64,000 nt of DNA, from the NCBI GenBank assembly GCA_030700025.1, contig JAUYKI010000017.1:2748-66747 (forward strand), in the 5' to 3' direction. Made by a program: the position numbers and the translations under genes. The stretch comes from a bacterium. Its GTDB lineage: Bacteria; Patescibacteriota; Minisyncoccia; UBA6257; 02-FULL-45-10c. Shown in pieces: positions 1,782 through 60,925 of this stretch. How positions within the stretch are numbered: the first letter of the stretch is position 1; every line of letters starts with the position of its first letter. The notes beneath the pieces are model-generated. The model did not search any database and was not told the origin of the DNA. It worked only from the letters and a program-made list of their open reading frames with translations.

Positions 1782-1957
1782 TTTAGAATCTAATATCTAG
1801 AATCTAGAAAATAGAATTTATGAAAAATAAAGAACAAAACGATTTAATGGATCCCGTTAGAAGGTGAAGAATCTTCGTTATTTTAGTAAAATTGCCAAGT
1901 ATTATGAAAATTAATAAAAATAATCAAAAAAGTGACGTTGGGGCCCCTTCTAACGGG

Positions 1958-3340
1958 ATGGATAAGGTGATTAGCTTGTGCAAGCGGCGGGGTTTTATTT
2001 TTCCCGGATCGGAAATTTACGGGGGATTGGCAAATTCCTGGGATTACGGCCCATTAGGGGTGGAATTGAAAAATAATATCAAGCAGGAATGGTGGAGGCG
2101 TTTTGTGCATTCCCGGACGGATGTGGTGGGTTTGGATACGGCTTTAATTATGAACACCAAAGTTTGGGAAGCGAGCGGACATTTGAAGGAATTTTCTGAC
2201 CCGTTGGTGGAGTGCGATGTGTGTAAAAATCGGTGGCGTATTGATGCATTGGATCAAATGAGGGCTCGTAAAGCAGATGGCTCATATAGATGTCCAACAA
2301 TGACGGCCTCTTTTATTAAGGGGGGTGCCGATAGTTATTGCTCGGGCAAATTAAGTGAACCACGCCAGTTTAATTTAATGTTCAAAACTTTTTTAGGCCC
2401 AGTGGAAAGCGAAGACAATACAGTTTATTTCCGTCCGGAAACCGCGCAGGGAATGTTCGTAAATTTTAAAAACGTTTTAGAAACTACCCGCAAGCGTTTG
2501 CCGTTCGGCATTGCCCAGGTCGGCAAAGCATTCCGGAATGAAATTACTCCGGGCAATTTTATTTTCCGCACCCGCGAGTTTGAACAAATGGAAATAGAGT
2601 ATTTTACTCACGAAAAAGATTGGAAAGCTCATTTTGAAATGTGGCTGGAAGAAATGAGAAATTGGCTCCGGCATTTGGGGGTGAAGAAATTCCACGAAAC
2701 GGAAATTCCGGACGGCGAACGCGCCCACTATTCCAAGCGGACCGTGGATATTGAATATGACTTTCCGTTCGGCAAAAAGGAGCTTTATGGCCTGGCCTAT
2801 CGGACAGATTTTGATTTAAAAAAACACATGGATAAAAGCGGGGAGGATTTCCGGTATACCGATCCGGAAACTAATGAGAAGTTTTTACCGCATGTTATTG
2901 AGCCGACTTGGGGCGTTGACCGCTCGGTATTGGTTGCATTGCTGGAGGCTTACCATGAAGAAACGGTTAAAAGTGAAAAGTTAAAAGTGAAAAGTGAGGA
3001 CGATGAAGATACGCGGGTAGTTATGAAATTTCCAAAATGGCTGGCGCCGGTTAAGGTGGCAGTTCTGCCTCTTTCCAAGAAAGAAAATCTTTCCAGCCAA
3101 GCTAAAAAAATTCATGAAGATTTGGCAAAAGATTTTGTCTGTGAATATGACGAAACCCAAAGTATCGGCAAGCGCTATCGCCGGCAGGACGAAATTGGAA
3201 CGCCGTTTTGCGTAACAGTTGATTTTGAATCGCTGGAGGATAAAGCGGTAACGGTGAGAGATCGTGATACAATGAAACAAGAGAGAATTTCTATTTCTGA
3301 ATTAAAGAACTATCTAAATCAGAAATTAAATTCCGAATAA
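1958..3340 (+). CDS. glyQS: Glycine--tRNA ligase, dimeric class II (GlyQS type)
   Basis: Motifs RRGFIFPGSEIYGG, WDYGPLGVELKNN and FRNEITPGNFIFRTREFEQMEIEYF. Start chosen at MDKVISLCKRRGF (ATG 1958), because the ORF-track start at 1892 adds a non-conserved N-terminal extension. That ATG lies inside the right arm of a family-C palindromic element. Confidence 0.85.
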   Translation: MDKVISLCKRRGFIFPGSEIYGGLANSWDYGPLGVELKNNIKQEWWRRFVHSRTDVVGLDTALIMNTKVWEASGHLKEFSDPLVECDVCKNRWRIDALDQMRARKADGSYRCPTMTASFIKGGADSYCSGKLSEPRQFNLMFKTFLGPVESEDNTVYFRPETAQGMFVNFKNVLETTRKRLPFGIAQVGKAFRNEITPGNFIFRTREFEQMEIEYFTHEKDWKAHFEMWLEEMRNWLRHLGVKKFHETEIPDGERAHYSKRTVDIEYDFPFGKKELYGLAYRTDFDLKKHMDKSGEDFRYTDPETNEKFLPHVIEPTWGVDRSVLVALLEAYHEETVKSEKLKVKSEDDEDTRVVMKFPKWLAPVKVAVLPLSKKENLSSQAKKIHEDLAKDFVCEYDETQSIGKRYRRQDEIGTPFCVTVDFESLEDKAVTVRDRDTMKQERISISELKNYLNQKLNSE

Positions 3341-3399
3341 TTTTTTAAATTGGACATTTAGAATTTTATTAGAAATTAGATATTAGTAATTAGAAATTT

Positions 3400-4668
3400 A
3401 TGTTTAAAAAGTATGTTTTATCCAGCGGTTTAAGAGTGGTGTTGGCTCCCCAGCCGGACAATGTGGCGGCCACGGTTTTGGTATTGGTAGAGGCGGGATC
3501 AAAATACGAAACCAAAAAAATTAACGGCTTATCTCATTTTTTGGAACATTTATGTTTTAAGGGAACGGCTAAGCGGCCGACGGCGATTGCCATTGCTTCA
3601 GAATTGGAATCTTTGGGAGCGGTTTACAATGCTTTTACCGGGCACGAAGTAACCGGTTATTACGCCAAAGTCGGCGCGTCTAAAATTAATTCGGCTTTGG
3701 ATATTATCGCCGATCTTTATCAGGACCCGGTTTTTGACGAAGCGGAATTTGAAAAAGAAAAAGGAGTTATTATTGAAGAAATTAATTTATACGAAGATAC
3801 GCCGACCCGGAAAGTCCAGGAACTTTTTACGGAATTGATGTACGGCGATCAGCCGGCCGGCTGGCCCATCGGCGGTTTGAAGGAAGTAATTTTGTCGTTA
3901 AAAAAACAGGATGTTTTGAATTACCGCTCGGAGCACTACGTGGCTAAGGCTACGACCGTAGTGGTTGCTGGCGCTTTTAATGAAAAAGAAATGCTGAAAA
4001 GAATAAAAACGCTTTTTGCTAAAACTCCGGCTAACAAAAAATTCTCTAAAATCCGCACTCAAGAATCCCAGGCCCGGCCTCAAACTTTAGTGCGCTTTAA
4101 AAAATCAGACCAAACTCATTTGGTAATGGGCTTCCGGGCATTTGACCGGTACGATAAACGGCAGTACGCGCTGGAAGTTTTAGCGGATATTTTGGGCGGC
4201 GGCATGAGCTCCCGGCTTTTTCAAAGAATCAGGGCAGAATTAGGCGCGGCTTATTACGTTAAAGCCGGAACCGATTTATTTACGGATCATGGATTTTTGT
4301 CCGTATCGGCCGGAGTGGACCACCGGAAATTAAAAGAAGTTATTGAGGCAGCTTTGGGGGAGTTTAAGAAAATTTCTTCGGTTTTGGTAACTTCCAATGA
4401 GCTAGAAAAATCTAAGAATCATTTGACCGGCCAGGCGATGCTGGGTTTGGAAACCTCGGACGCCTTAGCCAGTTTTTACGGAGAACAGGAGATTTTCCAG
4501 GAAAAGATATTGAACCTTCGGGACGTTATTAAAAAAATAGAGGCCGTGACCGCTAAAGACGTTTTAAACGTTGCCCGTGAAATTATGAAGGATAAAAAGT
4601 TGAATTTGGCGCTTATCGGACCGGTCAAGAAGCTTCCGACCGGGCTGGATTTTAGTTTGGGGCGGTAG
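3400..4668 (+). CDS. M16-family zinc metallopeptidase (insulinase/pitrilysin-like)
   Basis: HxxEH inverted zinc-binding motif (HFLEHLCFKGT); 422 aa, typical M16B length and order. Confidence 0.85.
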   Translation: MFKKYVLSSGLRVVLAPQPDNVAATVLVLVEAGSKYETKKINGLSHFLEHLCFKGTAKRPTAIAIASELESLGAVYNAFTGHEVTGYYAKVGASKINSALDIIADLYQDPVFDEAEFEKEKGVIIEEINLYEDTPTRKVQELFTELMYGDQPAGWPIGGLKEVILSLKKQDVLNYRSEHYVAKATTVVVAGAFNEKEMLKRIKTLFAKTPANKKFSKIRTQESQARPQTLVRFKKSDQTHLVMGFRAFDRYDKRQYALEVLADILGGGMSSRLFQRIRAELGAAYYVKAGTDLFTDHGFLSVSAGVDHRKLKEVIEAALGEFKKISSVLVTSNELEKSKNHLTGQAMLGLETSDALASFYGEQEIFQEKILNLRDVIKKIEAVTAKDVLNVAREIMKDKKLNLALIGPVKKLPTGLDFSLGR

Positions 4669-4716: not shown

Positions 4717-5745
4717 ATGGAAAAAGGAACTTTATTTGAGATTAGCTGGAGCAGCCTGTGGCGCATAGTGGTAATGCTGGTTTTGGGCAGCATTGTTTTT
4801 TTTGCTAAAGACGTTTTGGTGGCGGTGGCTTTGGCGATAGTCATTTCCTCGGCCTTTGATCCGCTGGTGAGCGCTTTGGAGCGCTGGCGGATTCCCCGGG
4901 TTTTGGGCACTCTTGGCATTTTTATTTTGATTATTGTCGGTTTAGCAATGGTGCTTTACACTATTGTTCCTTTGGCGCTTTCGGAGTTAAACGTTTTGTT
5001 GAATACTTTAACCGAAATTGACGCTCCGTTTTTGGGATTGGAACAATTATCCGCGGTAGTTAAAACCCTTAACGAGGGAATCGGCCGGCTGGCGAATCTT
5101 TTAATCAGCGGCAGCGCTTCTATATTAGATGCCGTATCTCGGTTTTTGGGCGGAATTGCTTTAGTAATCTCGGTTTTTATCCTTTCCTTCTATTTAACTA
5201 TTGACCGGGACGGCATAGAGAACTTCTTAAAGGCAATTTTGCCGCCTAGTTACGAAGATCAGGTTTTAGATATTTATTTCCGGGTCCGGAGGAAGATTGG
5301 CCGCTGGCTGCAGGGCCAGATTTTCTTGAGCTTGAGCATCGGTTTTAGCACCTTTATAGCCCTTTGGAGTTTGGGAATTAAATACAGCCTGATCCTGGGA
5401 ATCTTGGCTGGTATGTTAGAAATTGTTCCGTTTGTGGGCCCGATTTTCAGCGGCGCCATAGCTTTCTTGATTGCCCTTTCGCAGTCATTCTCGTCGGCAA
5501 TTTACGTTCTGATACTTTTTATCGTGATTCAGCAATTAGAAGGGCATTTATTGGTACCGACTTTTATGCGTTTGGCCACCGGCTTGAATCCGGCTTTAAT
5601 TCTGATCGCCCTTTTAATCGGAAGCCAGCTTTTGGGATTTATCGGATTGATTTTGGCGGTTCCAGCCGCGGTGCTGGCGCAAGAAGTTATTAATTTCTGG
5701 TCTTTGTCTAAAAACAAAAAGAAGGCAGCGATGCTAAACGTTTAG
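4717..5745 (+). CDS. AI-2E family transporter (PerM/UPF0118 membrane protein)
   Basis: 342-aa polytopic membrane protein with the AI-2E-like pattern (…QIFLSLSIGF…LEIVPFVGPIFSGAIAFLIAL…). Confidence 0.75.
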   Translation: MEKGTLFEISWSSLWRIVVMLVLGSIVFFAKDVLVAVALAIVISSAFDPLVSALERWRIPRVLGTLGIFILIIVGLAMVLYTIVPLALSELNVLLNTLTEIDAPFLGLEQLSAVVKTLNEGIGRLANLLISGSASILDAVSRFLGGIALVISVFILSFYLTIDRDGIENFLKAILPPSYEDQVLDIYFRVRRKIGRWLQGQIFLSLSIGFSTFIALWSLGIKYSLILGILAGMLEIVPFVGPIFSGAIAFLIALSQSFSSAIYVLILFIVIQQLEGHLLVPTFMRLATGLNPALILIALLIGSQLLGFIGLILAVPAAVLAQEVINFWSLSKNKKKAAMLNV

Positions 5746-5773
5746 AATCTAGAATCTAATATCTAGAATAAGA

Positions 5774-6093: not shown

Positions 6094-7722
6094 ATGTCTA
6101 AGTTCTATATCACTACCTCTATTGCTTATGTTAATGCCGCCCCGCATATTGGTTTTGCGCTGGAAGCGGTTCAGGCGGACGTAGTTGCCCGCTGGCATAA
6201 GCAGGAGGAAGTCTTCTTTTTAACCGGCACAGACGAGCACGGAGCGAAAATTGCCAGGGCCGCGGCCGCCTCGCGCGGCGAGGCGCCGCCGAAAGCGAGC
6301 CTCGCCACTGGCGGGAGCCTCGCCCCAAAGGGGCGGGAAGCCGACAATAAGTTAATAAAAGAATTTGTTGATCAGCAAGCAGAAAAGTTTAAAGCGTTAA
6401 AAAGCGCGCTTAATTTATCCTGGGACAACTTCATCCGGACTTCCGACCAAAAAGTTCATTGGCCGGTGGCGCAAGAAGTCTGGAAGCGGATTGCGGAGGC
6501 GGGCGATTTATATAAAAAAACTTATCAGGGGCTTTATTGCGTCGGCCACGAAGCGTTTGTTACCCAGAAAGACTTAGTGGCGGAAACCCCGACGCTAGAG
6601 GGTCGGGGCTCCGACCGAAGCGCCGGAGATGCCTTAGTATGTAAAGATCATAAAAAAGCCCCGGAGCTTATAGAAGAAGAAAACTGGTTTTTTAAATTAT
6701 CAAAATATACGAAAGATATTGAATTGCGAATAAAGAATGATGAATTACGGATTATTCCGGAAGGCCGGAAAAATGAGGTTTTGGGCTTGCTTAAGGACGA
6801 TCCGGAAGATGGTTCGGCAAGCTCACCACAAGACGTGAGTTTCTCCCGGCCGAGCAAAGACTTAACCTGGGGCGTTCCGGTGCCGGGCGATGATTCGCAA
6901 ACCATGTATGTCTGGGCAGATGCCCTCACGAACTATATTAGCGGTTATGGCGGAGTTAAAAACTGGGAAAAGCATCCGGCGGATATCCATTTTATCGGTA
7001 AAGATATTTTACGTTTTCACGCGATCATTTGGCCGGCGATGCTTTTATCGGCAAAATTGCCCTTGCCGAAAACTATTTTTGTGCACGGCCATATTTTGTC
7101 TGACGGGCAGAAGATGTCTAAATCCTTAGGCAATGTGGTGGATCCGTTTGAATTAGTAAAAAAGTATGGTTCGGCAAGCTCATCACAAGCTGGCACAGAT
7201 GCAGTTCGGTATTTTCTTTTGCGGGAAATTCCGTCGGCGGAAGACGGCGATTTTAGCTATGAAAAATTTACCCAGCGGTATAACGCGGATTTGGCAAACG
7301 GATTAGGTAATTTTGCGGCCCGGGTTTTAACCCTTGCGAGTAATTACAGCGAATATTTTACAATTCACGCTAACCCCCAGAACGTTCACGAGGTGGTTAA
7401 TGACAAAATTAAGGAAACCCAATTATTAGCTAATAAGAAAATCACGGATTTTAAACTTAACGAAGCACTAGAAATAATTTGGAGCTTAATCCATTTTGGG
7501 GATCAGTATATAAATGAAAAAAAACCATGGGAGCGAAAGGATGAAAAAATAATAGAGGCAAATGGCGTAGCGATTCACAGTTCGGTAGCAATTTTAAATA
7601 ACGTGGCGATTTTACTCCAACCATTTTTGCCGGACACCGCGGATAAAATTACCAAGAGCATCGTTTGGGAAGAAGGTAGGCTGGAAATCCAAAAGACCGA
7701 AAATTTATTTCCGAGATTGTAA
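6094..7722 (+). CDS. metG: Methionine--tRNA ligase (core enzyme, no C-terminal tRNA-binding extension)
   Basis: N-terminal HIGH region (YVNAAPHIGFALEA), KMSKS motif (QKMSKSLGN), and the DAVRYFLLREIP anticodon-binding motif. Contains three in-frame low-complexity insertions (see findings). Confidence 0.9.
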   Translation: MSKFYITTSIAYVNAAPHIGFALEAVQADVVARWHKQEEVFFLTGTDEHGAKIARAAAASRGEAPPKASLATGGSLAPKGREADNKLIKEFVDQQAEKFKALKSALNLSWDNFIRTSDQKVHWPVAQEVWKRIAEAGDLYKKTYQGLYCVGHEAFVTQKDLVAETPTLEGRGSDRSAGDALVCKDHKKAPELIEEENWFFKLSKYTKDIELRIKNDELRIIPEGRKNEVLGLLKDDPEDGSASSPQDVSFSRPSKDLTWGVPVPGDDSQTMYVWADALTNYISGYGGVKNWEKHPADIHFIGKDILRFHAIIWPAMLLSAKLPLPKTIFVHGHILSDGQKMSKSLGNVVDPFELVKKYGSASSSQAGTDAVRYFLLREIPSAEDGDFSYEKFTQRYNADLANGLGNFAARVLTLASNYSEYFTIHANPQNVHEVVNDKIKETQLLANKKITDFKLNEALEIIWSLIHFGDQYINEKKPWERKDEKIIEANGVAIHSSVAILNNVAILLQPFLPDTADKITKSIVWEEGRLEIQKTENLFPRL

Positions 7723-7744: not shown

Positions 7745-8470
7745 AATCCCCCGACATGCGTCAGGGGAAATGATGATGGGCAACAGTTGCTTTGCAGTGT
7801 TATGAGGTATTAGCCTCTAGCCATAAAGTGGCTGTCTGTTCTGCGTTGCTTCTGTTGCCGTTGACTCGGAATTTTGTCAGGGCGGGTGGACACCGGGTTA
7901 GCTCGCGCGGCTGAAAGAAAGTCAGCCTTCTATTCCCGGCGCCACCTTTGGCAGTGAGATGGTTGTAACACCCCACCGGCCAGCAGCCTGCCCCGACTTT
8001 ACGTCGGGGTCCCCTCCGGCTTGTGACCGGAGGATGATTCCAAATAGCAGTTGCCTTTCGCAGATTATGAGCCTATTGGGCTCTGACCAAAAAAGTGGTC
8101 TTCTTTCTGTTAGCTTCTGTTATTGGATGATTCCGCCCCGACGCTTTGTAAGCCGTCGGGGATACTGCTACTTGGTGAGCCGGTCCTAAGGTAGCGAATC
8201 TTTGGTTTCCTACCCACCAAGATGATGCTTCTTATTGTAGTTAAGGAACGAAAGTAGCGCGATGTGACTCTGCAACTGTCCAGTTTGTGTTGCATCGGAG
8301 CGGAATACCCGGGTGGACGGCCCCAAGGCTCCTACGGCTCTTTGCCTGATCTCGGGTTCTTCCCGACGTCAACCAAGCATTGTAAGAACCAAAGCCAGCA
8401 TCGCTAAGTAAGGATAGCACACCTCAAACCCTTTGTCAATAGCGGGTTTGCAATCTCTAAATTCTAATCC
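7745..8470. other. ORF-free hairpin-rich region of ~700 bp between metG and tatD (candidate structured RNA or decayed element)
   Basis: No ORF longer than 76 codons on either strand. Coding-like GC content. Several strong GC hairpins: CCCCGACtttacGTCGGGG, CCTCCGGcttgtgaCCGGAGG, CCCCGACGctttgtaagcCGTCGGGG. Internal duplicated segment ('GGATGATTCC', 'TTCTGTT…GCTTCTGTT'). Includes a 17-nt string GGTCCTAAGGTAGCGAA identical to a universally conserved 23S rRNA segment, but the flanks are not rRNA-like. Confidence 0.35.
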
Positions 8471-8603
8471 CTAATCTCTAAATAAACTCGAAGCTCAAAT
8501 ATCCGGATTTTTAAATTTTATTTTTGAGATTGGACATTGGAAATTGTTTAGAAATTAGGGTTTAGGAATTAGAAATTTATCAAAACATGTTATTATTAAT
8601 TCC

Positions 8604-9473
8604 ATGAAACTTTTTGATTCTCACACCCACGTTCAATTCTCGGCTTACGATAATGACCGCGAAGAAGTTATTAAACGCGCTCGAGAAGCGGGCGTAAAAA
8701 TGATTTGCGTGGGTACGCAGTTTTCCACTTCCGAGGCGGGGATAAAATTGGCGGAAAAATATCCGGACGATATTTGGGCGTCGGTTGGTTTTCATCCGAA
8801 TCACGCGGTGAGCGAGGGCTGGCATCACGATCCGGACGAACAAAGCGAAGCTCGGCCGGAAAAGTTTGATTCGGACCAATTGGAAAAATTAGCCCTGAAT
8901 CCGAAAGTGGTGGCGATTGGGGAATGCGGATTGGACTACTATAGAATCAGGAATGATGAATTAGGAATTAAGAATAAGCAGAAAGAAGTTTTTTTGGCGC
9001 AAGCGGAGATTGCCCAAAAATTAAATAAAGCCCTTATGATTCATTGCCGTTCCTCGGTTTTGAAAAGCCCCGAAGGTAAATCAATAAAAACTGACGATGC
9101 TTATGAAGACCTATTTAACTTAATGACCAATAACCAATTACCAATAACCAAAGTAATTCACTTTTTTGCCGGGTCTTTAGAAATAGCAAAAAAATTATTA
9201 AATGCCGGCTGTTATTTTACTTTTGGCGGGGTCATAACGTTTACCCGGGATTATGACGAGGCAATTAAATATCTTCCTTTGGACAGAATCCTTTTGGAAA
9301 CCGACGCGCCCTATGTCGCGCCGGAGCCGTACCGGGGGAAGAGGAATGAGCCGGCTTATGTTGTGGAAGTAGCGAAAAAAATGGCGGAGTTCAAAGGCGT
9401 AAGTTTGGAGAAGGTGGCGGAAGCGACCACGCAAAATAACTTGACTATTTTTAGATTATCTGATATTGTATAG
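8604..9473 (+). CDS. tatD: TatD-family metal-dependent hydrolase (DNase)
   Basis: N-terminal FDSHTHV motif, GECGLDYY, and C-terminal LLETDAPY motif. Confidence 0.85.
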   Translation: MKLFDSHTHVQFSAYDNDREEVIKRAREAGVKMICVGTQFSTSEAGIKLAEKYPDDIWASVGFHPNHAVSEGWHHDPDEQSEARPEKFDSDQLEKLALNPKVVAIGECGLDYYRIRNDELGIKNKQKEVFLAQAEIAQKLNKALMIHCRSSVLKSPEGKSIKTDDAYEDLFNLMTNNQLPITKVIHFFAGSLEIAKKLLNAGCYFTFGGVITFTRDYDEAIKYLPLDRILLETDAPYVAPEPYRGKRNEPAYVVEVAKKMAEFKGVSLEKVAEATTQNNLTIFRLSDIV

Positions 9474-9984: not shown

Positions 9985-11694
9985 ATGAATTACAACCAGA
10001 CCGTGCCGGAGCTTTTTGCCCAGACAGTTCAGCGATATCCGAATAAAGACGCGATTCTTTTCCATGGCCGGTTTACTTACTCGGATTTGGATAAGATGTC
10101 AGATGAATTTGCCAAAGTGCTTTTGATGAACGGCATTTACAAGGGCGACCGGGTTTCGTTACTGTTGCCCAATAGCGTACATTTTGACGTGGCCTTTTTA
10201 GGCATTTTGAAAATCGGAGCGGTAGTGTCGGCGATGAATCCGTTGGTCAGCACTCCGGAAATTCTGGAGATGGCGAAACAAGCGAAGCCCACAATGATCA
10301 TTACCTTGGATATCGCGCCTTTTTACGCGCATAACCAGGCGATTTACAAGAGCTTGAAGCCCAACCAGATTATGATGGTTTGCGATTTGCGGGATTATTT
10401 CTCGCCGATTTTAAAGATTCTTTATACGCTGAAAACTTGGCGGGATAAACACTTCTTGGGAATCAGCTCCGAAGATGGCAGGCGGTCGGTATATTCGTGG
10501 GGCTATTGGAAGCGCGACAGTTTATCACAGAAATATTTGTTGCCTGACAATCCCACAATGGCAGCATTAACGAAAAAGAATTGTCCGACTCCGGACGATT
10601 TGGCTGTTTTGCAATCTACCGGCGGAACGACTGGAATTCCGAAGTTTGCTATGTTGAGCCATCGGAATATCATCAGTAACACTTTGCAGGCCTTGGCGCA
10701 TGTTAATGCCACGGGCCAGCTGGTTACCAAGGATTCTATTTTCTTGGGCGTTTTGCCGTTTTTCCATGTTTTCGGGCTTTCGGTTTGCCTGAACTTGGCT
10801 TTTGCGGTTGGCGCGACTGTGGTGATTATGCCGAAGTTTGACAGCGCGGAAGCGCTAAAGCTGATCAAGAAATACGGAGTGGATATTTTTCCGGCGATTA
10901 CCCGGATGTACGCGGCTTTGGTCGCGTTCGGATCTAAGGATTCGGAAAAATGCCGGACAATGTGCGCTAGCTTGAGGCTGTGCTTTTCCGGAGCCGGAGC
11001 TTTGGATCTGGCGGTAAAAGCCCAATGGGAAAAAATGACCGGAAAAGAAATCACCGAAGGCTACGGCTTGTCCGAAGCGTCGCCGATCGTTTCTTTTAAT
11101 CCGATTGGTGAAGGAAAAACCGGAAGCATGGGCACCTTGGTTCCGGATACGGAATTGAAATTAGTTCACCAGGATACCGGCGAACCGGTTGGCTGGGATG
11201 AATCTGGTGAATTGTGGATCCGTGGCCCGCAAGTGATGATGGGCTATTGGCAGAATGAAGAAGAAACGCGAATGGCGCTCCGCGAAGGCGGATGGCTGGC
11301 TACCGGCGATATCGTCCGATATCACGACGGATATTTATGGTTCGTGGACCGGAAAAAGGACATGGTGAAGATTAACGGAGAGAATGTTTATCCCAAGTCC
11401 ATTGAAGATGTAATCCGTACCTGTCCGATAGTGGCTGATGTGGCGGTGTTTGGCGTGCCAGATAAAGAAACCGGCGAACAGCTGGTAGCGTGCGTAGTTT
11501 TAAACGATAAAGCAGAGGGCGCGCTGAAATACACCGATTCGGCCTTGACTGACGCGATACACGGCCATTGCCGCAATAACCATCTGGCGGGAATCAAGAT
11601 TCCCAAGCGAGTGGTATCGGTTCCCGAAATTCCCAAAACGGTTGTAGGAAAAGTTCTGAAGAGAGTATTGAAAGAAAACCTTTTAAAAAACTAA
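9985..11694 (+). CDS. AMP-dependent synthetase/ligase (long-chain fatty-acid--CoA ligase-like)
   Basis: AMP-binding signature LQSTGGTTGIPKFAMLSHRN, plus TEGYGLSE and GWLATGDI motifs; 569 aa. Confidence 0.85.
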   Translation: MNYNQTVPELFAQTVQRYPNKDAILFHGRFTYSDLDKMSDEFAKVLLMNGIYKGDRVSLLLPNSVHFDVAFLGILKIGAVVSAMNPLVSTPEILEMAKQAKPTMIITLDIAPFYAHNQAIYKSLKPNQIMMVCDLRDYFSPILKILYTLKTWRDKHFLGISSEDGRRSVYSWGYWKRDSLSQKYLLPDNPTMAALTKKNCPTPDDLAVLQSTGGTTGIPKFAMLSHRNIISNTLQALAHVNATGQLVTKDSIFLGVLPFFHVFGLSVCLNLAFAVGATVVIMPKFDSAEALKLIKKYGVDIFPAITRMYAALVAFGSKDSEKCRTMCASLRLCFSGAGALDLAVKAQWEKMTGKEITEGYGLSEASPIVSFNPIGEGKTGSMGTLVPDTELKLVHQDTGEPVGWDESGELWIRGPQVMMGYWQNEEETRMALREGGWLATGDIVRYHDGYLWFVDRKKDMVKINGENVYPKSIEDVIRTCPIVADVAVFGVPDKETGEQLVACVVLNDKAEGALKYTDSALTDAIHGHCRNNHLAGIKIPKRVVSVPEIPKTVVGKVLKRVLKENLLKN

Positions 11695-11716
11695 AGACTA
11701 AAAATCAAAAAATTTA

Positions 11717-11743
11717 ACCCCGATAAATGTCGGGGTTTTTAAT
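11717..11743 (+). terminator. Rho-independent terminator after the acyl-CoA ligase gene
   Basis: CCCCGAtaaatgTCGGGG followed by TTTTTAATTT. Confidence 0.7.
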
Positions 11744-11745
11744 TT

Positions 11746-11891
11746 AGAAAGAGTGTTTTATTCTCCCGCTACTGTTCAAACTCCCGGCGAGAGTTTTCAC
11801 TGGGTCTCGGGCTTCGCTCTTTCCGCCTTTGGCGGAAAACCCTGCCCGCTCAGCCCTCAGCCCGCGCTACGGAGAATAAAACACTCTTTCT
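11746..11891. repeat. Family-B palindromic element, copy 1 (~146 bp)
   Basis: Terminal inverted repeat AGAAAGAGTGTTTTATTCTC … GAGAATAAAACACTCTTTCT. The interior is the reverse complement of the copy at 36625-36809 (shared GAGCGAAGCCCGAGACCCAGTGAAAAC and GCTGAGCGGGCAGGG blocks). Confidence 0.7.
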
Positions 11892-12440: not shown

Positions 12441-14966
12441 ATGAAGTACGACTTCAAAAAGATAGAAAAAAAGTGGCAGAAGACTTGGAGTAAGAATGAC
12501 TACGCCGTCTGGCACGCGGAGGAAAAGCCCAGGGCAAGGGAAATGTATGTTTTGGACATGTTTCCGTATCCTTCCGGCGAAGGTTTGCATGTGGGCCATG
12601 TGGAGGGCTACACTGCCTCGGATATTTTAAGCCGTTATTATCGGATGCGCGGTTTTAATGTTTTGCACCCAATGGGCTGGGACGCTTTCGGTTTGCCCGC
12701 GGAAAATTACGCGATTAAAAAGAAGGTCCATCCCGCGGAAGTAGTGAAGCAAAATGTTAAGCGGTTCAAAGAACAGCTGAACAAGCTGGGCTTCAGCTAT
12801 GACTGGCAAAGGGAAGTGAATACCACCGACCCGGAATATTATAAGTGGACTCAATGGATTTTCCTCCAGCTTTTTGAAAAGGGCTTGGCTTATGAAGCGG
12901 AAGTGCCGGTGAATTGGTGCCCGAAAGATAAAACGGTTTTAGCGAACGAGGAAGTGATTGACGGCTGTTGTGAACGCTGTAGCGAACAGGTGGAAAGGAA
13001 AAATCTCAAGCAATGGGTTTTAAAAATCACGGCTTACGCGGACCGGCTTTTAAAGGACTTGGAAGATTTGGACTGGCCGGACAAAGTGAAAGAAATGCAG
13101 AAAAATTGGATCGGCCGTTCCGAGGGCGCGGAAATTGATTTTCCAGTGGCTAATTCCACTTTAAAAATAAAAGTCTTCACCACCCGGCCGGACACGATTC
13201 CGGGAGTTACTTATTTAGTGCTGGCGCCGGAACATGCGCTGATTTCCCAGCTGGACGCGAGAATTACCAATCCGAACGCGGTTAAGGAATATCTGGAAAC
13301 CGCCAGGCATAAATCGGAACGGGAAAGAATCGCCGATATCAGGCAAAAAACCGGAGTGGAATTGCGGGGCATCAAGGCCGTGAATCCTTTAACCGGAAAA
13401 GAAATACCGGTTTGGACTTCGGATTACGTTTTATCCGGCTACGGCACCGGAGCGATTATGGCGGTTCCGGCGCATGACCAGCGGGATTTTGAATTTGCCA
13501 AGAATTTCGAATTGCCGATTGTCCAGGTCATTTCCCTTACCGGACGGGAAGAGGATTTAGCGTCGGCGTACGGAGGCGACGGCATTATGATTAACGCCGG
13601 CGAAGAATTAAACGGCTTGGGCAATCAGTTAGCGAAAGAAACAATTATTGAAAAATTGGAAGCTCATAAAAAGGTAAATTATAAGCTTCGGGACTGGGTA
13701 TTTTCCCGCCAGCGTTATTGGGGAGAACCTATACCGCTTATTTTTTGTGAACAGTGTAAAAAACAAGCGGTAAATTCCAAATTCCAAACTCCAAATTCCA
13801 AACATAATGAATTTAACGAAGGCGAGATTTTAAATCCGGGCTGGGTTCCGGTGCCGGAAGAAGATTTGCCGGTAGAACTGCCGAAAGTTAAAAACTATGA
13901 GCCGACCGGTTCGGCGGAGTCTCCGCTAGCAGGGATTGATAAGTGGGTGAATGTAAAATGTCCGCAATGCGGCGAGCCGGCGAAAAGAGAAACCAACACT
14001 ATGCCGCAATGGGCGGGCTCTTGCTGGTATTATCTCGCGTATATTTTAAGTGAAAAGTTAAAAGTTAAAAGTGACAAAGATTTTTGGGATAAAAAATCTT
14101 TGGATTATTGGCTGCCGGTGGATGTTTATATCGGCGGAGTAGAGCACGCCGTACTCCATCTTTTATATGCTCGTTTTTGGCATAAGTTTTTGCATGATAT
14201 TGAAGCTGTTTCTACGAAAGAGCCGTTTCAGCGGTTGGTGAATCAGGGCTTGATTTTGGGACCGGATAATCAAAAGATGTCCAAATCCCGCGGGAACGTG
14301 GTTAATCCGGATGAGCTGGTAGAAAAGTTCGGAGCGGATTCTTTGCGGTTATATGAAATGTTTATGGGGCCGTTGGAAGACGCTAAACCGTGGCAGCCGG
14401 ACGGAATTGTCGGCGTGCATCGGTTTCTTAATCGTGTATGGAATCTAGTAGGCGAAAAGCGAAAAACGAAAAGCGAAAAGACGGACGATAAATTAGAAAG
14501 ATTATTACACAAGACGATTAAAAAAGTTACTGAAGACGTAGAGGGGCTTAAATTTAATACCGCTATTTCCAGTTTAATGATTTTAGTGAATGAAATGGAG
14601 AAGGCGGAGTCAATAGTTAATAGTCAATTGTTATTAGTTACTAAGTTGCTGTTTCCTTTTGCTCCGCATATTGCCCAAGAGCTTTGGAGCCAGCTTGGCC
14701 CTTCGGCAAGTTCAGGACAAGCAAGCTTGCTGGATCATGAAGATTGGCCGAAATATGACGAGAAATTGATTACCGAAGAAGACTTTGAGCTTTTGATTCA
14801 GGTTAACGGAAAATTGCGCGATAAGGTTATGGTTTCAAAAAATACTACGCAAGAAGAAGCGGAGAAGTTGGTTTTGGGAATGGAAAAGATTAAAGAGTTT
14901 GTCGGCAAAGCTAAGCCTAAAAAAATAATTTTTGTGCCAGGCCGGTTAATTAATATTGTGGTTTAG
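12441..14966 (+). CDS. leuS: Leucine--tRNA ligase
   Basis: HVGHVEGY (HIGH) motif, KMSKSRGN, and CP1 editing-domain layout; 841 aa. Contains three in-frame heptamer-repeat insertions. Confidence 0.95.
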   Translation: MKYDFKKIEKKWQKTWSKNDYAVWHAEEKPRAREMYVLDMFPYPSGEGLHVGHVEGYTASDILSRYYRMRGFNVLHPMGWDAFGLPAENYAIKKKVHPAEVVKQNVKRFKEQLNKLGFSYDWQREVNTTDPEYYKWTQWIFLQLFEKGLAYEAEVPVNWCPKDKTVLANEEVIDGCCERCSEQVERKNLKQWVLKITAYADRLLKDLEDLDWPDKVKEMQKNWIGRSEGAEIDFPVANSTLKIKVFTTRPDTIPGVTYLVLAPEHALISQLDARITNPNAVKEYLETARHKSERERIADIRQKTGVELRGIKAVNPLTGKEIPVWTSDYVLSGYGTGAIMAVPAHDQRDFEFAKNFELPIVQVISLTGREEDLASAYGGDGIMINAGEELNGLGNQLAKETIIEKLEAHKKVNYKLRDWVFSRQRYWGEPIPLIFCEQCKKQAVNSKFQTPNSKHNEFNEGEILNPGWVPVPEEDLPVELPKVKNYEPTGSAESPLAGIDKWVNVKCPQCGEPAKRETNTMPQWAGSCWYYLAYILSEKLKVKSDKDFWDKKSLDYWLPVDVYIGGVEHAVLHLLYARFWHKFLHDIEAVSTKEPFQRLVNQGLILGPDNQKMSKSRGNVVNPDELVEKFGADSLRLYEMFMGPLEDAKPWQPDGIVGVHRFLNRVWNLVGEKRKTKSEKTDDKLERLLHKTIKKVTEDVEGLKFNTAISSLMILVNEMEKAESIVNSQLLLVTKLLFPFAPHIAQELWSQLGPSASSGQASLLDHEDWPKYDEKLITEEDFELLIQVNGKLRDKVMVSKNTTQEEAEKLVLGMEKIKEFVGKAKPKKIIFVPGRLINIVV

Positions 14967-15165: not shown

Positions 15166-17028
15166 ATGTGCGGTATAGTCGGTTACATCGGAAAACAGAA
15201 AGCCGCTCCCATACTTTTGGACGGCATTAAAAGCTTGGAGTATCGCGGTTATGATTCAGCGGGAATTTCCGTGATTAATAATCAAGGAGGAGTGGCGGAG
15301 GCGCAAGTGGAAAAAGCGGTTGGCAAAGTAATTAATTTAGAAAATAAAATAAAGTCCCGGGAGCTGTTAGGCGGCCTCGGGATTATTCATACCCGCTGGG
15401 CCACTCATGGCGGAGCCACCGAGGCCAATGCTCATCCGCATAGCGATTGCGCTGGCAATATTTGGCTGGTTCACAATGGAATTATTGAGAATTATAAAGA
15501 GCTAAAAAATGAACTGATTTCCGCCGGCCATCAGTTTAAATCGGAAACTGACACGGAAGTCGTTGCTCATTTAATCGAAGAGCAAGTTAAAAGTTTAAAG
15601 TCAAAAGTTCAAAGTTATGCGTTAGAGGACGCGGTGCGGTTAGCTTTGAAAAAAGTCCGCGGAGCTTACGCGCTGGCGATTATTGATAAGCGCGAGCCGG
15701 AAAAATTAGTGGCCGTCCGGAATTCCAGCCCGCTGATTTTGGGAATCGGCAATGATGAATATCTGGTGGCTTCGGACGCTTCGGCGGTAGTAAAGCATAC
15801 CCGCAAAGTGATTTATTTTAATGACGGCGAAATGGCAATTTTAACTCCGGATAATCATCGGGTGGTTAATCTGGAAAACCAGGCAGTAGATTCTCAGCCG
15901 CAAGAATTAGATTGGACTGTGGAAAGCGCCCAGAAAGGAGGCTATCCGCATTTTATGCTGAAAGAAATTTTTGAACAGCCGGAAGCGGTAGAAAATTGTT
16001 TGCGCGGAAGATTGGTAGTTCAAGAGGGAACGGCTAAACTGGGCGGATTGGAATCCATTAAAGATAAATTGCGGGAAATAAAAAGAATTCATATTTCCGC
16101 CTGCGGTACGGCTTATTTGGCCGGAAAAGTGGGTGAATATATGCTGGAAGAATATGCCGGCATTCCGGTAGAAGTGGATTTGGCTTCCGAGCTTCGTTAT
16201 CGCAAACCCGTTTTTGATAATCATGACGCGGTGCTGGTGATTTCCCAATCCGGAGAAACGGCGGATACGCTGGCTTCGGTAAAAGAAGCCAAGGAAAAGG
16301 GAATTTTAACTTTAGGCATTGTTAATACGGTGGGATCGTCCATTGCCCGGGAAACCGAAGCCGGAATTTATCAGCATATCGGTCCGGAAATCGGCGTAGC
16401 TTCCACCAAAGCATTTACTTCGCAGGTGGCGGTGCTGGCGCTCTTAACTTTATTTTTGGGAAGGCAGCGGCAAATGTCTTTGGTAACCGGCGAGCGGATC
16501 GCGCGGGAATTGCAGAGGTTGCCGGAATTAATCCGAAAAGTTTTGCAGTCCGAAGATTTAATAAAACAAATCGCCGTCAAATATCAGACCCACAATAATT
16601 TTTTATACTTAGGCCGGAAATATAATCTGCCGATTGCTTACGAGGGAGCGTTAAAATTAAAAGAAATTTCCTATATCCACGCTGAAGGCTATGGCGCCGG
16701 AGAAATGAAGCACGGCCCGATTGCCATGATTGACCAGAATTTGCCGTCGGTAGTAATTGTTCCGTCGGACTCGGTTTATGAAAAAACTGTTTCTAATATT
16801 GAGGAAATTCGCGCCCGTCGAGGTCCGGTTATCGCCATTGCCACTGAAGGCAACGAAGATATTAAAAGTTTGGCGGACGACGTTATTTATATTCCGAAAT
16901 CTTTGGAAATGCTGACTCCGATTTTATCGGCGGTTCCGCTCCAGCTTTTTGCTTATCATGTCGGAGTTTTGCGGGGATTGGACGTAGATAAGCCCCGTAA
17001 TCTCGCTAAATCGGTTACCGTGGAATAA
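15166..17028 (+). CDS. glmS: Glutamine--fructose-6-phosphate aminotransferase (isomerising)
   Basis: N-terminal MCGIVGY with a Cys2 nucleophile; two SIS domains; C-terminal …SVTVE; 620 aa. Confidence 0.95.
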   Translation: MCGIVGYIGKQKAAPILLDGIKSLEYRGYDSAGISVINNQGGVAEAQVEKAVGKVINLENKIKSRELLGGLGIIHTRWATHGGATEANAHPHSDCAGNIWLVHNGIIENYKELKNELISAGHQFKSETDTEVVAHLIEEQVKSLKSKVQSYALEDAVRLALKKVRGAYALAIIDKREPEKLVAVRNSSPLILGIGNDEYLVASDASAVVKHTRKVIYFNDGEMAILTPDNHRVVNLENQAVDSQPQELDWTVESAQKGGYPHFMLKEIFEQPEAVENCLRGRLVVQEGTAKLGGLESIKDKLREIKRIHISACGTAYLAGKVGEYMLEEYAGIPVEVDLASELRYRKPVFDNHDAVLVISQSGETADTLASVKEAKEKGILTLGIVNTVGSSIARETEAGIYQHIGPEIGVASTKAFTSQVAVLALLTLFLGRQRQMSLVTGERIARELQRLPELIRKVLQSEDLIKQIAVKYQTHNNFLYLGRKYNLPIAYEGALKLKEISYIHAEGYGAGEMKHGPIAMIDQNLPSVVIVPSDSVYEKTVSNIEEIRARRGPVIAIATEGNEDIKSLADDVIYIPKSLEMLTPILSAVPLQLFAYHVGVLRGLDVDKPRNLAKSVTVE

Positions 17029-17630: not shown

Positions 17631-18701
17631 TTAGATGCCGAGATAATCCAAGAATTTTCCAAGTTGGGCGTTTTTGGGGCTATGGCTGGTTTTTTCGTTT
17701 GGCGGATTAATAACCATAGATCCGCGAATCAGCTGGGTGTCCAGAAAAGCATCTTTCAGTTTTTTAAAAACTCCGGTTAATTTTTTGGTTTGGGATGTAA
17801 GGAAAAAACTGCTATTAGCAGAACTCCACAAAGCATAAGTATCAAAGCCTAGCGCTTTGGCGGCGGTAAATCCTAGAGGAATTTGATTGCGTTGTTTGAG
17901 CCGTCCGGTTTTTGGATCTTGCGTAGTTTCCACGATGTTTAATAATACTTTTCCCAATTCGGCGCTTTCCGGCTTGGCTCCGCCTTCTGCCATGCGTTTT
18001 TTGGCGGCTTCAATTCCGTTTAAAGATATTTGGACCAATCCTTTATTTTGAAGGCAGATATCCCATAAATTAACCTTTTTACCGCCGGATTCTTTTACCG
18101 TGATTTGTTTGGCCTCTTCTTCGGCAAATGGCTGGCGCGGATCCCGGCCCTCCTGGAAGAATTTGGCAATTAAGCTTAGTGGCAGGGCTTTATAGATTCC
18201 ATAAGGAGTCCGCCACCAGTCATTTTTTAAAAACTCTTCGTCAATCGGATAATCTAAATTATCTATTTGGGTTACAAACTCGGAAAAATTATCCAGCCAC
18301 TTTTCCTTTTTCAGCATTCCGGCTTTAGTCAGGGATTCATAAACAATTGCGGTGGCGGAAGTGGGCTTGCCTTGTTCCGGACCGTGATGGTCAAAGAAAA
18401 TACTGCCGTCTTCTTCCATGGTTAATTCCGGCTTGCCCCCGGTATCAATATGCACCGCGCCGGCCAGGTCTTTTCCTTTTGGCACGAAAGTTACCATTTT
18501 ATAATTAATGCCCGCTAAATCCATTAAAAAGACTCCGCCCATCGCGTCTAAGTCGGGCCGGAGCTTTAATTGGCTTTTTCCGCCTTCGTGGCGGAAATCA
18601 CCGTGGATAACCAGCTGGTCAAAGCCGGCCTTCAGGGTTTCCGCTACCCGTTCTAATGTTTTTTGCTCTGATTTTTCCGGATTGGCTTTAAATTGTTCCA
18701 T
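17631..18701 (-). CDS. Hypothetical protein; weak resemblance to DHH-family phosphoesterases
   Basis: 356 aa with HID…FFDHHGP segment (DHH motif-III like); other DHH motifs are not clear. Confidence 0.5.
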   Translation of the reverse strand: MEQFKANPEKSEQKTLERVAETLKAGFDQLVIHGDFRHEGGKSQLKLRPDLDAMGGVFLMDLAGINYKMVTFVPKGKDLAGAVHIDTGGKPELTMEEDGSIFFDHHGPEQGKPTSATAIVYESLTKAGMLKKEKWLDNFSEFVTQIDNLDYPIDEEFLKNDWWRTPYGIYKALPLSLIAKFFQEGRDPRQPFAEEEAKQITVKESGGKKVNLWDICLQNKGLVQISLNGIEAAKKRMAEGGAKPESAELGKVLLNIVETTQDPKTGRLKQRNQIPLGFTAAKALGFDTYALWSSANSSFFLTSQTKKLTGVFKKLKDAFLDTQLIRGSMVINPPNEKTSHSPKNAQLGKFLDYLGI

Positions 18702-20068: not shown

Positions 20069-20905
20069 GAAAAGTTTATCGGATTAATTTTATTGGCTTT
20101 TGCCGTTGCCGCGGGAATCTTTATATTTTCCCGCGAGGGCGGTTTGTCCAAGTTGGCGGCTCCTTACACTGTTAAGTTGGAGCCGTATTCTTACCGGCAA
20201 AGATATTCGGATGCCGGAGCGGATCAGCCCTCTGGATCGGACTATAGCTCTTACGGCCAATCGGAAATTGAAAACAGAAAGTTGTTAACCATTTCTTCGT
20301 TCCGGCCAGCCAATAGTTATGTTTCTTATTCGGAGATAGTTTTAGATTCCAATTTGAACAGCGGCGAGACCGCGGACATTACCGGCTGGATCATTAAGGG
20401 TGAACACGGATCATTCACTATTCCGCGGGCGCAGGAAGTTTTTTCTTCCGGCGGAGTTGAGGGCAATATCGTGGCGCGTTCCCGGGACGCGATTTATCTT
20501 TATTCCGGCTTTGGACCGAAGGGCAATTTCCGTTTGAATAAATGCCTTGGTTACATAGAAGACGTTGCTCCGTTTACGCCGCCTCTGCCTAAAGATTGCC
20601 CGCAAATTTCCTGGTCGGAGATGCAGAGGTTCGGGGGTTATTGCCGGGATTATATTTCTTCGCTGGATACTTGCCAGACACCGAATGCTAATCCGCCGGT
20701 GCCCTTGGAAGATACGGCTTGCCACGCTTTTTTGCGGGATTTGAACTATGTCGGCTGTGTTGCGAATCATCGGAACGATCAGGATTTTCGTTCCAACGAA
20801 TGGAGGGTTTGGATGGGGGATCAGATGAATATCTTTGACCCAATTCACGATCGAATCCAGCTTTGGGATAAAAGCGGAAAATTGGTAGACGAATACATTT
20901 ATTAG
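20066..20905 (+). CDS. Secreted/membrane-anchored Cys-rich hypothetical protein
   Basis: Start at MEKFIGLILLAFAVAAGIFIF (signal anchor). The upstream part of the track ORF (from 19832) is interrupted by a terminator, so it is rejected. The C-terminal half has 8 Cys. Confidence 0.55.
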   Translation: MEKFIGLILLAFAVAAGIFIFSREGGLSKLAAPYTVKLEPYSYRQRYSDAGADQPSGSDYSSYGQSEIENRKLLTISSFRPANSYVSYSEIVLDSNLNSGETADITGWIIKGEHGSFTIPRAQEVFSSGGVEGNIVARSRDAIYLYSGFGPKGNFRLNKCLGYIEDVAPFTPPLPKDCPQISWSEMQRFGGYCRDYISSLDTCQTPNANPPVPLEDTACHAFLRDLNYVGCVANHRNDQDFRSNEWRVWMGDQMNIFDPIHDRIQLWDKSGKLVDEYIY

Positions 20906-27351: not shown

Positions 27352-27398
27352 AAAATTAACTATTAACTTATAACCGATAATTTATAACTTTTCAAACC

Positions 27399-34599: not shown

Positions 34600-34711
34600 A
34601 TTTCTAATTACTAATTTCTAATTACTAATGACTAAGTTCAAAATTCAAATCCCGCAATTGCGGGATTTTTTATTTGAAAATACTTCAAAATTGATTTAAT
34701 ATATTTTCAAC

Positions 34712-35597: not shown

Positions 35598-35780
35598 TTA
35601 TTAAGTATATCAGATATGACAAGAACTACGGAACTAATAACTATTAACCAATGACTAATTGACTTTATCCCAAAATGATATATAATATCCCCAAGCATCA
35701 GATACTTCGGTATTTGATGCGGTTCGTTGAAAAAGAAAACCAATTCAGCCGCTAATCCCGGCTGAGCGGAACAGGGGTCC

Positions 35781-37543: not shown

Positions 37544-37750
37544 TGGATTCCAATAACTAATTTCTAATATCTAATTTCTAATAAAATGACCGAAATCACA
37601 AACCACAAGCACCAAATCACAAACAAGCACCAATGACCAAAATCATAAATTTAAAACCCGTTTGGAATTTCTATTATTTGAATTTAGAATTTGTTTGTAA
37701 TTTGAGATTTGTAATTTGGAATTTTATCAGAAATTGTAAATTGTAAATTT

Positions 37751-44831: not shown

Positions 44832-44932
44832 ATGTTACACTTATTAAAGGTCGGAAATAAGATGTAATACCAATATACGAATTATTCGTATCATTAGTAT
44901 GAATTAGTATATTAGTATCTCATTATAAATAT

Positions 44933-53453: not shown

Positions 53454-53456
53454 AAT

Positions 53457-57610: not shown

Positions 57611-59665
<2,055 letters not shown>

Positions 59666-60800: not shown

Positions 60801-60925
60801 GTAATGAGATACTAATATACTAATATACTAATTCATGCGAATGATACTAATAAAATGCGAATATAAAAGCATTAGTATGCTATTCGTATCATTAGTACCA
60901 TTTGTATATTAGTATCATATTTTTA
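60800..60925. repeat. Palindromic array of TACTAAT/TCGTATCATTAGTA heptamer-type repeats between gatC and gatA
   Basis: The left half (AATGAGATACTAATATACTAATATACTAATTCAT) is the reverse complement of the right half. The same motif occurs upstream of pilA at 44870-44932. Confidence 0.6.

Follow-up and report, generated by a model that had tools for sequence, protein, structure and literature searches.

The window analysed here is a 64,000-nucleotide (nt) stretch of contig JAUYKI010000017.1 (assembly GCA_030700025.1, positions 2,748 to 66,747 of the forward strand) from a member of the Patescibacteriota, in which short tandem arrays of seven-nucleotide units (heptamers) lie both between genes and, in frame, inside housekeeping genes. 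Based on Pfam identities, these housekeeping genes form a syntenic block with glyQS (1892-3340), metG (6094-7722), tatD (8604-9473), an AMP-binding enzyme gene (9985-11694), leuS (12441-14966), glmS (15166-17028) and ligA (57614-59665). The window has a GC content of about 45% and a uniformly positive GC skew. The best named relatives of its LeuRS and LigA are Parcubacteria/Paceibacteria, including 'Harrisonbacteria', and the source is a Parcubacteria/Paceibacteria-like bacterium of the candidate phyla radiation (CPR) with a tiny genome. Proteins of NCBI metagenome-assembled genomes are 100% identical to both enzymes and of equal length.

Using Tandem Repeats Finder (TRF), about 24 period-7 arrays of 19-41 nt were listed in the window, with a typical size of about 4.5 units (25-37 nt). 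A separate strict lag-match scan identified 12 period-7 arrays, versus none in 20 dinucleotide-preserving shuffles, and among periods 4 to 21 only 7 is enriched, together with its multiples 14 and 21. Eleven arrays are located inside open reading frames (ORFs); intergenic DNA, a far smaller share of the window, has about 13. The window contains no fewer than 15 different units, and many arrays are perfect at period 14, following an ABAB pattern.

All arrays were read on the forward strand. The single glyQS array (2966-2998; GTGAAAA/GTTAAAA, 100% at a 14-nt period) encodes VKSEKLKVKSE in the linker joining the class II core to the anticodon-binding domain. Two arrays lie in tatD, a degenerate GAATTAG-type array at 8944-8975 (RIRNDELGIKN) and an AATAACC array at 9122-9151 (MTNNQLPITK). 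The four sites in leuS are 13772-13802 (site 1; AAATTCC x4.4, NSKFQTPNSK), 14048-14072 (site 2; AAAAGTT/G x3.6, SEKLKVKS), 14452-14480 (site 3; GCGAAAA x4.1, EKRKTKSEK) and 14608-14640 (site 4; AGTTAAT/AGTCAAT x4.7, SIVNSQLLLV). In glmS, one AAGTTAA-type array (15584-15617, x4.9) encodes VKSLKSKVQSY within the glutaminase domain. Finally, ligA carries three arrays, at 58100-58132 (array 1; AAATTAG x4.7, 11 residues, adenylation domain), 59220-59252 (array 2; a perfect CAAAAAT x4.7, 10 residues, in a loop between helix-hairpin-helix (HhH) helices) and 59423-59451 (array 3; CTAAAAG x4.1, 10 residues, HhH-BRCT linker). Seven of these had been listed in an initial annotation made from the sequence; all seven are present within 1-3 nt of the places given there and encode the peptides named. 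Both tatD arrays, leuS 14608-14640 and ligA 59423-59451 are additional to that list.

Since 7 equals 1 modulo 3, three successive units (21 nt) take the unit through all three reading frames. The in-ORF arrays encode peptides of 10-11 residues, rich in K, S, N and Q and with a period of seven residues. Pure versions of the 11 arrays would hold nine in-frame stop codons, and each of these is removed by a variant base. For example, AAATTAG becomes AAATTCG in ligA array 1 (in-frame TAG lost), AAAAGTG becomes AAAAGTT in glyQS (in-frame TGA lost), CTAAAAG becomes CTCAAAG in ligA array 3 and AATAACC becomes AATTACC in tatD array 2, each with the loss of a stop. In leuS, the G variant at 14048-14072 abolishes an in-frame TAA, and two variants at 14608-14640 abolish a TAA and a TAG. 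In total, the 27 of 342 positions where a stop would otherwise arise account for 10 of the 21 deviations from the unit consensus (P = 1.5e-6), while arrays in the window ORFs whose units are stop-free are 97-100% pure. The same holds for 80 metagenomic loci around LigA relatives (683 kb; arrays of at least three copies, in ORFs of at least 150 amino acids (aa)), where 38 of 223 deviations in 97 in-ORF arrays lie in the 3.3% of positions that would otherwise be stops (P = 1e-16). The variant bases at would-be stops reflect selection keeping the arrays open. In these relatives, the sense strand of the in-ORF arrays has A>T in 83 cases and T>A in 11, and the encoded peptides consist of 18% K, 11% S, 9% Q and 8% N, and are also rich in L and I. 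Units giving non-hydrophilic peptides exist as well, such as CTACAAC (LQPTTYNLP) and AGTTAAT (SIVNSQLLLV).

According to the initial annotation, the arrays lie between conserved blocks of the enzymes. This is correct, as alignments to solved structures place them at indel-prone segments; in LeuRS they fall in segments that are gapped or variable compared to the Thermus enzyme. Calling them inserts describes only part of the sites, which range from additions of 4 to 14 aa over orthologues to equal-length replacement. Compared to E. coli LigA, the loop with array 1 is 4 aa longer, array 2 belongs to 14 aa inserted between HhH helices, and the HhH-BRCT linker contains array 3. In an AlphaFold2 model of LigA (mean pLDDT, the predicted local distance difference test score, of 80), all three arrays form non-regular loops or linker. 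In TatD, the loop with array 1 is 4 aa longer than in the S. aureus protein, and array 2 aligns to it gap-free, as an equal-length segment. Several arrays thus replace a segment of the same length and evolve in concert, as described below, while others are true insertions. In LeuRS, the CxxC motif is followed by a 27-aa insert (window 13758-13838, LeuRS aa 440-466) that contains the leuS 13772-13802 array. This insert is found in about one third of CPR orthologues regardless of overall similarity, usually with a heptamer array in its middle and a conserved C-terminal part, NEGEILNPGW.

The same loops in relatives carry arrays with different units, often at equal length. In comparisons of 120 CPR LeuRS and 120 LigA orthologues, seven-residue-periodic peptides were matched 75 times in the LeuRS and 81 times in the LigA set, versus 9-39 times at other periods, making them 2-8 times commoner than any other period. 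They concentrate at six hot spots in LeuRS (q233-243, 268-280, 443-458, 537-555, 670-682 and 722-734, with leuS site 2 at q537-555 and site 3 at q670-682) and three in LigA (q162-176, 534-546 and 598-613). Two LigA loops have a constant length, 23 aa in 71 of the 120 orthologues and 25 aa in 100 of the 120, the latter being the loop of ligA array 3; they nonetheless hold many different heptamer-coded peptides. The LigA linker has a family-wide KLKxKSxKLK-like consensus. Loop-length differences in steps of 7 aa (21 nt) were considered as well; they are suggestive at LigA site 1 (16/23/37 and 18/25) and absent elsewhere, and were not used.

At the nucleotide level, codon alignments with syntenic relatives (loci L001, L002/L084, L083, L085 and L086) illustrate this turnover of units. 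The glyQS site has no array in L002 and an AAAAATC-type array in L085. At tatD site 1, L085 has a GCCACTA and L086 a CAAGCGT array, and at tatD site 2 four genomes carry ATAACCA, ATTCATA/ATTCCTT, CTACAAC/CTACCAC and CTTCAAG without any gap, with a lag-7 self-identity of 0.70-0.91 versus 0.44 between orthologues. The units at leuS site 2 are AAAAGTT, AATTCCC, AAATCCT/AAATTCG, AAATTCG and AAATCAA; the glmS site holds an AGAATCT array in L002. At leuS site 4, L001 and L086 have an ATTGGAA-type array of the same position and length. At ligA site 2, CAAAAAT in the window corresponds to CAAGTAT/CAAGCAT in L084 in the same register, a concerted two-base change. At any one site, many orthologues are without an array. 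For lag-7 self-identity, most values within arrays lie at 0.6-0.93, compared with 0.3-0.4 in array-less orthologues and 0.24-0.36 in flanks, whereas nucleotide identity between orthologues is 0.39-0.58 at eight of nine array sites (0.66 at ligA array 3) and 0.58-0.76 in the flanks. Because the arrays are alike internally yet more diverged between orthologues than their flanks, they seem to undergo concerted evolution; homogeneity within and divergence between arrays is, as far as these alignments go, its signature.

Two further observations concern individual sites. The array types at leuS site 4, AATAGTT in the window and L002 and ATTGGAA in L001 and L086, are distributed in disagreement with overall LeuRS similarity, which suggests recombination or ancient polymorphism. 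In addition, a 20-mer of the first tatD array (GAATCAGGAATGATGAATTA, window 8944-8963) is identical to a conserved metG segment of L086 (4243-4262) and matches the window's own metG at 6728-6747, 2.2 kb upstream, in 18 of 20 bases, where chance would be expected to give no such match. Possibly, this stretch of tatD was copied ectopically with metG as the template.

In the 80 relatives' loci, TRF returned 175 rows at period 7 versus 36, 57 and 88 at periods 6, 8 and 9, respectively. Arrays of at least three copies number 131 (192 per Mb), with 97 of them inside ORFs of at least 150 aa, and genes such as metG, pheS, gatA and gatC also act as hosts. The density is 167 per Mb in ORFs versus 331 per Mb outside, so that arrays are 2-fold rarer in ORFs. 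As controls, 80 loci from other bacteria (1.42 Mb) were taken, chosen as LeuRS relatives at no more than 54% identity among the matches listed in a LeuRS-alignment search of genome contigs. These control loci lack a period-7 peak and contain such arrays at about 20 per Mb, making the relatives' arrays about 10 times denser; by count, the window has 13 arrays in 64 kb versus 16 in the 1.42 Mb of control loci. The copy number in relatives is sharply peaked around 4.5 (median 4.6, interquartile range 4.1-4.9). The refined array length is 30-35 nt in 62% of cases, in ORFs and intergenic DNA alike, with a modal length of 31-34 nt in ORFs and 33 nt outside. Among 95 in-ORF arrays there are 68 distinct units, and no conserved flank motif was found around them (information content of at most 0.17 bits per position). 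The arrays tend to begin and finish on the A-run. Units from one genome resemble each other somewhat more than units from different genomes do (permutation P = 0.003), as illustrated by the genome-specific CAAGCNN family in L086.

Some control loci do carry in-frame heptamer arrays at the CPR LeuRS hot spots. These are three Verrucomicrobia (L013 with FQISNSESQI, L050 and L075), one member of the Binatia (L076) and another patescibacterium (L003). Because such lineages carry arrays at LeuRS hot spots, the heptamer-array phenomenon extends beyond the clade of the window. The arrays of L013 are at 10696-10723, 18504-18535, 20704-20735, 21108-21139 and 21594-21626, those of L050, L075 and L076 at 3709-3733, 11637-11769 and 11754-11787, respectively. 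The Verrucomicrobia and Binatia loci have a GC content of 55-66% and A/T-rich in-frame heptamer arrays, and in L013 four AATCCAA arrays are each located in a different ORF.

Further arrays in the window lie in intergenic DNA or on stop codons. The AGAATCT-type array at 1780-1817 begins on the stop codon of a DUF11 gene, the TAGAATC x3.9 array at 5743-5769 on that of the ORF 4717-5745, and a short AAAAACT x2.7 array (11686-11704) overlaps the stop codon of the AMP-binding enzyme gene. Another array, ATTAGAA x4.4 (3368-3398), ends 1 nt short of the ATG at 3400. Upstream of tatD, the arrays at 8452-8481 (AATCTCT/AAATTCT) and 8546-8577 (AGAAATT/AGGAATT) are imperfect inverted partners separated by about 65 nt. 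A TAACTTA x3.9 array (27364-27390) lies between tRNA-Ala and tRNA-Arg, and AACTAAT x4 (35632-35659) in a divergent promoter region. The array at 34599-34639 (AATTTCT/AATTACT, 100% at a 14-nt period) begins on the last stop-codon base of the ORF 33061-34599; directly after it, 34640-34680 contains a GC-rich hairpin followed by a T-run (aaatcccgcaattgcgggatttttt), which looks like an intrinsic terminator upstream of tRNA-Ala. A further divergent intergenic region, 37548-37749, has four arrays (37548-37584, 37593-37623, 37661-37724 and 37731-37749), so that these 200 nt are nearly all heptamer arrays, with their orientation mirrored toward each flanking gene.

The initial annotation offered two explanations, that the arrays are phase-variable contingency inserts or that the same process builds the in-gene and intergenic arrays. 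The latter is borne out in substance, as unit size, the modal length of 31-34 nt and unit families are common to both. On balance, by a narrow margin, the arrays are probably a by-product of generic unit-7 misalignment or templated repair, filtered by selection, and not on/off switches. Since coding and non-coding arrays have common features, a single DNA-level process would be at work. Misalignment with a 7-nt (sometimes 14-nt) offset would create the arrays and keep their units homogeneous, likely by slipped-strand or templated repair synthesis together with a degree of exchange among arrays and among lineages, and would hit coding and non-coding DNA alike. Selection would then purge frame shifts, stop codons, hydrophobic T-rich loop readings and changes at constrained residues. 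The survivors in genes would be stretches of about 30-35 nt with an A-rich sense strand, encoding a K/S/N/Q/E-rich, 7-residue-periodic peptide in a surface loop or inter-domain linker. Homogenisation would proceed without net length change: steps of ±21 nt keep units in their own class modulo 3 and therefore cannot homogenise them, and steps of ±7 or ±14 nt would frameshift essential genes, which is why length-neutral transfer between neighbouring units is proposed. Candidate agents are replicative or repair polymerase misalignment, misaligned recombination heteroduplex, or import from other arrays. The 68 units among 95 arrays and the lack of conserved flanks suggest a generic, not sequence-specific process, and the likeness of units within a genome may reflect cross-talk between its arrays.

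Several points weigh against this reading. The mechanism is inferred, not demonstrated, and no molecular event was directly observed. The peaked length of about 4.5 units in coding and non-coding DNA is not predicted by simple stepwise slippage and hints at a fixed-size patch or element, and the 7-nt size of the offset is left without explanation. Covariation at lag 7 in the constant-length protein loops has the largest excess of any lag, but a small one (+0.015 to +0.045). Finally, at least some turnover would fit patch recombination or local hypermutation, and not in-situ conversion, judging from two gatA genes (L142 5378-6832 and L143 7940-9394) that share about 98-100% identity along most of the gene and are wholly different at two array loops. 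These loops lie in patches of about 200 nt with 38-84% identity, as diverged as between unrelated lineages, and differ by -2 aa and +2 aa, leaving the net length unchanged. By this evidence, array states can apparently also be swapped between lineages. The pair was also considered as a view of array birth; as its patches are diverged, it does not display the origin of the arrays. A bolder version, in which length-neutral lag-7/14 templated overwriting continually rewrites unconstrained loops and spacers in patches of about 32 nt (three helical turns) in CPR, Verrucomicrobia and Binatia, is possible, though we regard it as rather doubtful.

If the arrays instead were phase-variable contingency loci, gain or loss of units by slippage would switch genes or loop variants on and off in populations. 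The unit length, not being a multiple of three, would suit this, since one-unit slippage shifts the frame, and simple sequence repeats (SSRs) are the classical basis of phase variation, as far as the literature is summarised by MacGregor (PMC4679880). However, the hosts leuS, glyQS, ligA and glmS have single-copy core functions that a one- or two-unit change would frameshift, and the arrays, at about 4.5 units, are short, with interruptions at precisely those positions that keep the frame open. No second copy of the source species was found in the databases searched, and an exact-flank search of metagenome contigs for ligA array length variants gave no match. As a proxy for stability, 10 clusters of relatives' proteins with at least 90% identity were therefore compared, several of them with arrays and with as many as 14 full-length sequences, each set drawn from independent assemblies. 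The arrays in these 10 clusters showed neither internal indels nor excess or clustered substitutions; they include a pure 52-nt array of 7.4 units (L085/P0098) in three independent assemblies, and all length differences are N-terminal start calls. Truncated members were considered as frameshift variants and rejected, their break points being away from the arrays. Array positions, finally, persist across deep divergence. The contingency loci of Haemophilus, Neisseria and Moraxella are also non-triplet tandem repeats within reading frames, but they are long, pure, length-polymorphic and located in dispensable surface or restriction-modification genes, whereas the window arrays are short, interrupted, in core genes and length-stable in near-identical relatives. 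The suggestion of contingency inserts is thus not supported, and we consider phase variation exceedingly improbable.

Another possibility might be that the arrays are functional cis-elements, in which five A-rich cores, phased along some 31.5 bp or three helical turns, form a DNA- or mRNA-level binding or structural site, for example for a nucleoid protein, a CspB-like heptamer binder or translation tuning, and the peptide is a tolerated by-product. The narrow length of 31-34 nt in ORFs and intergenic DNA, the tendency to have the A-run at both ends, positions kept across lineages and even phyla, the proximity of intergenic arrays to start and stop codons with mirrored orientation toward divergent genes, and the likeness of units within a genome would all agree with this. 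Yet units are extremely diverse within and across genomes (68 among 95), array sequence is less conserved between orthologues than the flanks, many orthologues are array-less at a given site, and the hot spots are the least constrained loops, as protein selection alone predicts, making such an element unlikely. The length peak at about 32 nt might also be explained by miniature mobile insertions of a fixed 30-33 nt or so, like the cyanobacterial small dispersed repeats, entering loops and intergenic DNA and later being replaced. True insertions of +5 to +14 aa compared to orthologues (glyQS, ligA site 2 and leuS site 2), the identical 20-mer in the window tatD and L086 metG, and the genome-specific unit families are in line with such mobility. 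It is nevertheless quite unlikely, given that no conserved element sequence, flank or target motif is present, that the length gap to array-less orthologues is not a constant 10-11 codons, that replacement is of equal length at tatD site 2, leuS site 4 and ligA sites 1 and 3, and that units at one site are related in register across lineages, as descent with concerted change predicts. Protein-level selection for flexible, charged K/S-rich linkers, with the nucleotide periodicity being secondary, would account for the K-, S-, Q- and N-rich composition, the location in loops and linkers of the LigA model and the LigA linker consensus. A 7-residue peptide period, however, needs no 7-nt DNA period, intergenic DNA is filled with the same arrays, and non-hydrophilic peptides (LQPTTYNLP, SIVNSQLLLV) are encoded as well. 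The arrays are as pure at synonymous positions as the frame permits, and the opposite of free synonymous change with a conserved peptide is observed. We therefore consider it very unlikely that linker selection is primary. Mutagenic homing by diversity-generating retroelements, transposon target-site duplications and telomerase-like synthesis were also rejected, as there is no template repeat, no element and no fitting size.

Returning to misalignment and templated repair, templated overwriting would, if true, be an unrecognised mutational engine of loop turnover in core enzymes, and a fixed patch size would point to a specific repair or recombination pathway. Length-neutral conversion would make whole new loop peptides from all three frames of one unit, in aminoacyl-tRNA synthetases (aaRSs), DNA ligase and other enzymes, and would account for part of the unusual insert content of CPR proteins. 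The combination of unit 7 and about 4.5 copies would then be a signature for finding the responsible polymerase or repair pathway by comparative genomics. To our knowledge, essential coding sequence is assumed to exclude microsatellites with non-triplet units; in the present case, such repeats are only about 2-fold rarer in ORFs, occur in the same loops across lineages and evolve in concert with the frame intact. Array loops also mislead alignment-based phylogeny.

Other repeats in the window are of a different kind. Two large Kelch-repeat proteins are encoded side by side at 50478-55103, with a 144-nt tandem repeat (53619-54076) corresponding to Kelch blades; InlB-B-repeat (Flg_new_2) domains are found in the second of these proteins as well as in the preceding ORF 48077-50476. 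At 44880-44920 and 60809-60918, octamer repeats (ATTAGTAT/ATACTAAT) occur together with a common 17-mer (TATTCGTATCATTAGTA) upstream of two genes, with starts at 44933 and 60925 (gatA-like). These sites look like an operator or promoter motif separate from the heptamer arrays.

Heptanucleotide repeats as such are known from other bacteria. The summary of Mrazek (2007) in PMC4679880 names heptanucleotides as the most frequent SSR with a long unit in many prokaryotes, with a proposed origin by polymerase-footprint slippage. From that summary, these long SSRs (LSSRs) resemble the present arrays in being 7-nt tandem direct repeats, over-represented among units of 5-11 nt and patchy across lineages. 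They are described there as occurring mainly in large GC-rich genomes and mostly in non-coding DNA, with non-triplet units disfavoured in coding regions, whereas the arrays here are found in a small CPR genome, are only about 2-fold depleted in ORFs and lie in conserved housekeeping enzymes. An over-represented 7-nt tandem unit and few copies per array, with a preference for about four, are found here as for LSSRs. As reported by Rehm et al. (2015; PMC4692102), heptamer arrays in Xanthomonas and Nostoc also prefer four units. Their GGGNATC and GGGGA(T/C)T repeats are genome-wide, often less than 50 bp from start or stop codons and in some cases in inverted pairs, and are over-represented in non-coding DNA. 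In contrast, the present arrays are A-rich, have very diverse units and cannot form a G-quadruplex, and show the same length preference. As non-G-quadruplex, A-rich arrays also prefer four units, this preference may not concern G-quadruplexes, and the G-quadruplex explanation for bacterial heptamer repeats may not be general.

MacGregor (2015; PMC4679880) described TAACTGA direct repeats in marine Beggiatoaceae, in cyanobacteria and in some Bacteroidetes. They consist of 2-6 heptamer units, with many sets abutting start or stop codons. The few sets inside ORFs are in a stop-free orientation and translated as the 7-residue repeat LSVISYQ. However, that system has only one unit sequence, for which horizontal spread is assumed; of its 169 sets, only 25 are not wholly intergenic, its ORF cases lie at the protein periphery, and database proteins with a match to the LSVISYQ repeat are mostly hypothetical. 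In the present case, dozens of units occupy internal loops of aaRSs, LigA, GlmS, TatD and GatA, at positions common to lineages and with concerted evolution. Dominance of one or very few units per genome, as in the TAACTGA and GGGNATC systems and in the short tandemly repeated repetitive (STRR) sequences, is not seen in these arrays. The cyanobacterial STRR sequences are a genome-specific, single-motif heptamer system.

Concerted evolution and misalignment-templated mutation at direct repeats were reportedly treated by Lovett in 'Encoded errors' (Mol Microbiol, 2004), a paper cited in PMC4679880. The likeness to the present arrays is that the units of one array remain similar although lineages differ in the array as a whole, a pattern ascribed to misaligned templating or conversion. 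Classical cases, however, involve length change or long repeats such as ribosomal DNA and satellites, whereas homogenisation here would be length-neutral and involves about 4.5 copies of a 7-nt unit in essential ORFs. In a literature search, no report was found of heptamer arrays in CPR/Patescibacteria, of diverse in-frame heptamer arrays recurring at the same aaRS, LigA, GlmS, TatD and GatA loops, or of concerted evolution of in-frame heptamer arrays. Heptanucleotide SSRs are already known, and what is new here are diverse, loop-recurrent and concertedly evolving arrays inside the ORFs of CPR bacteria.

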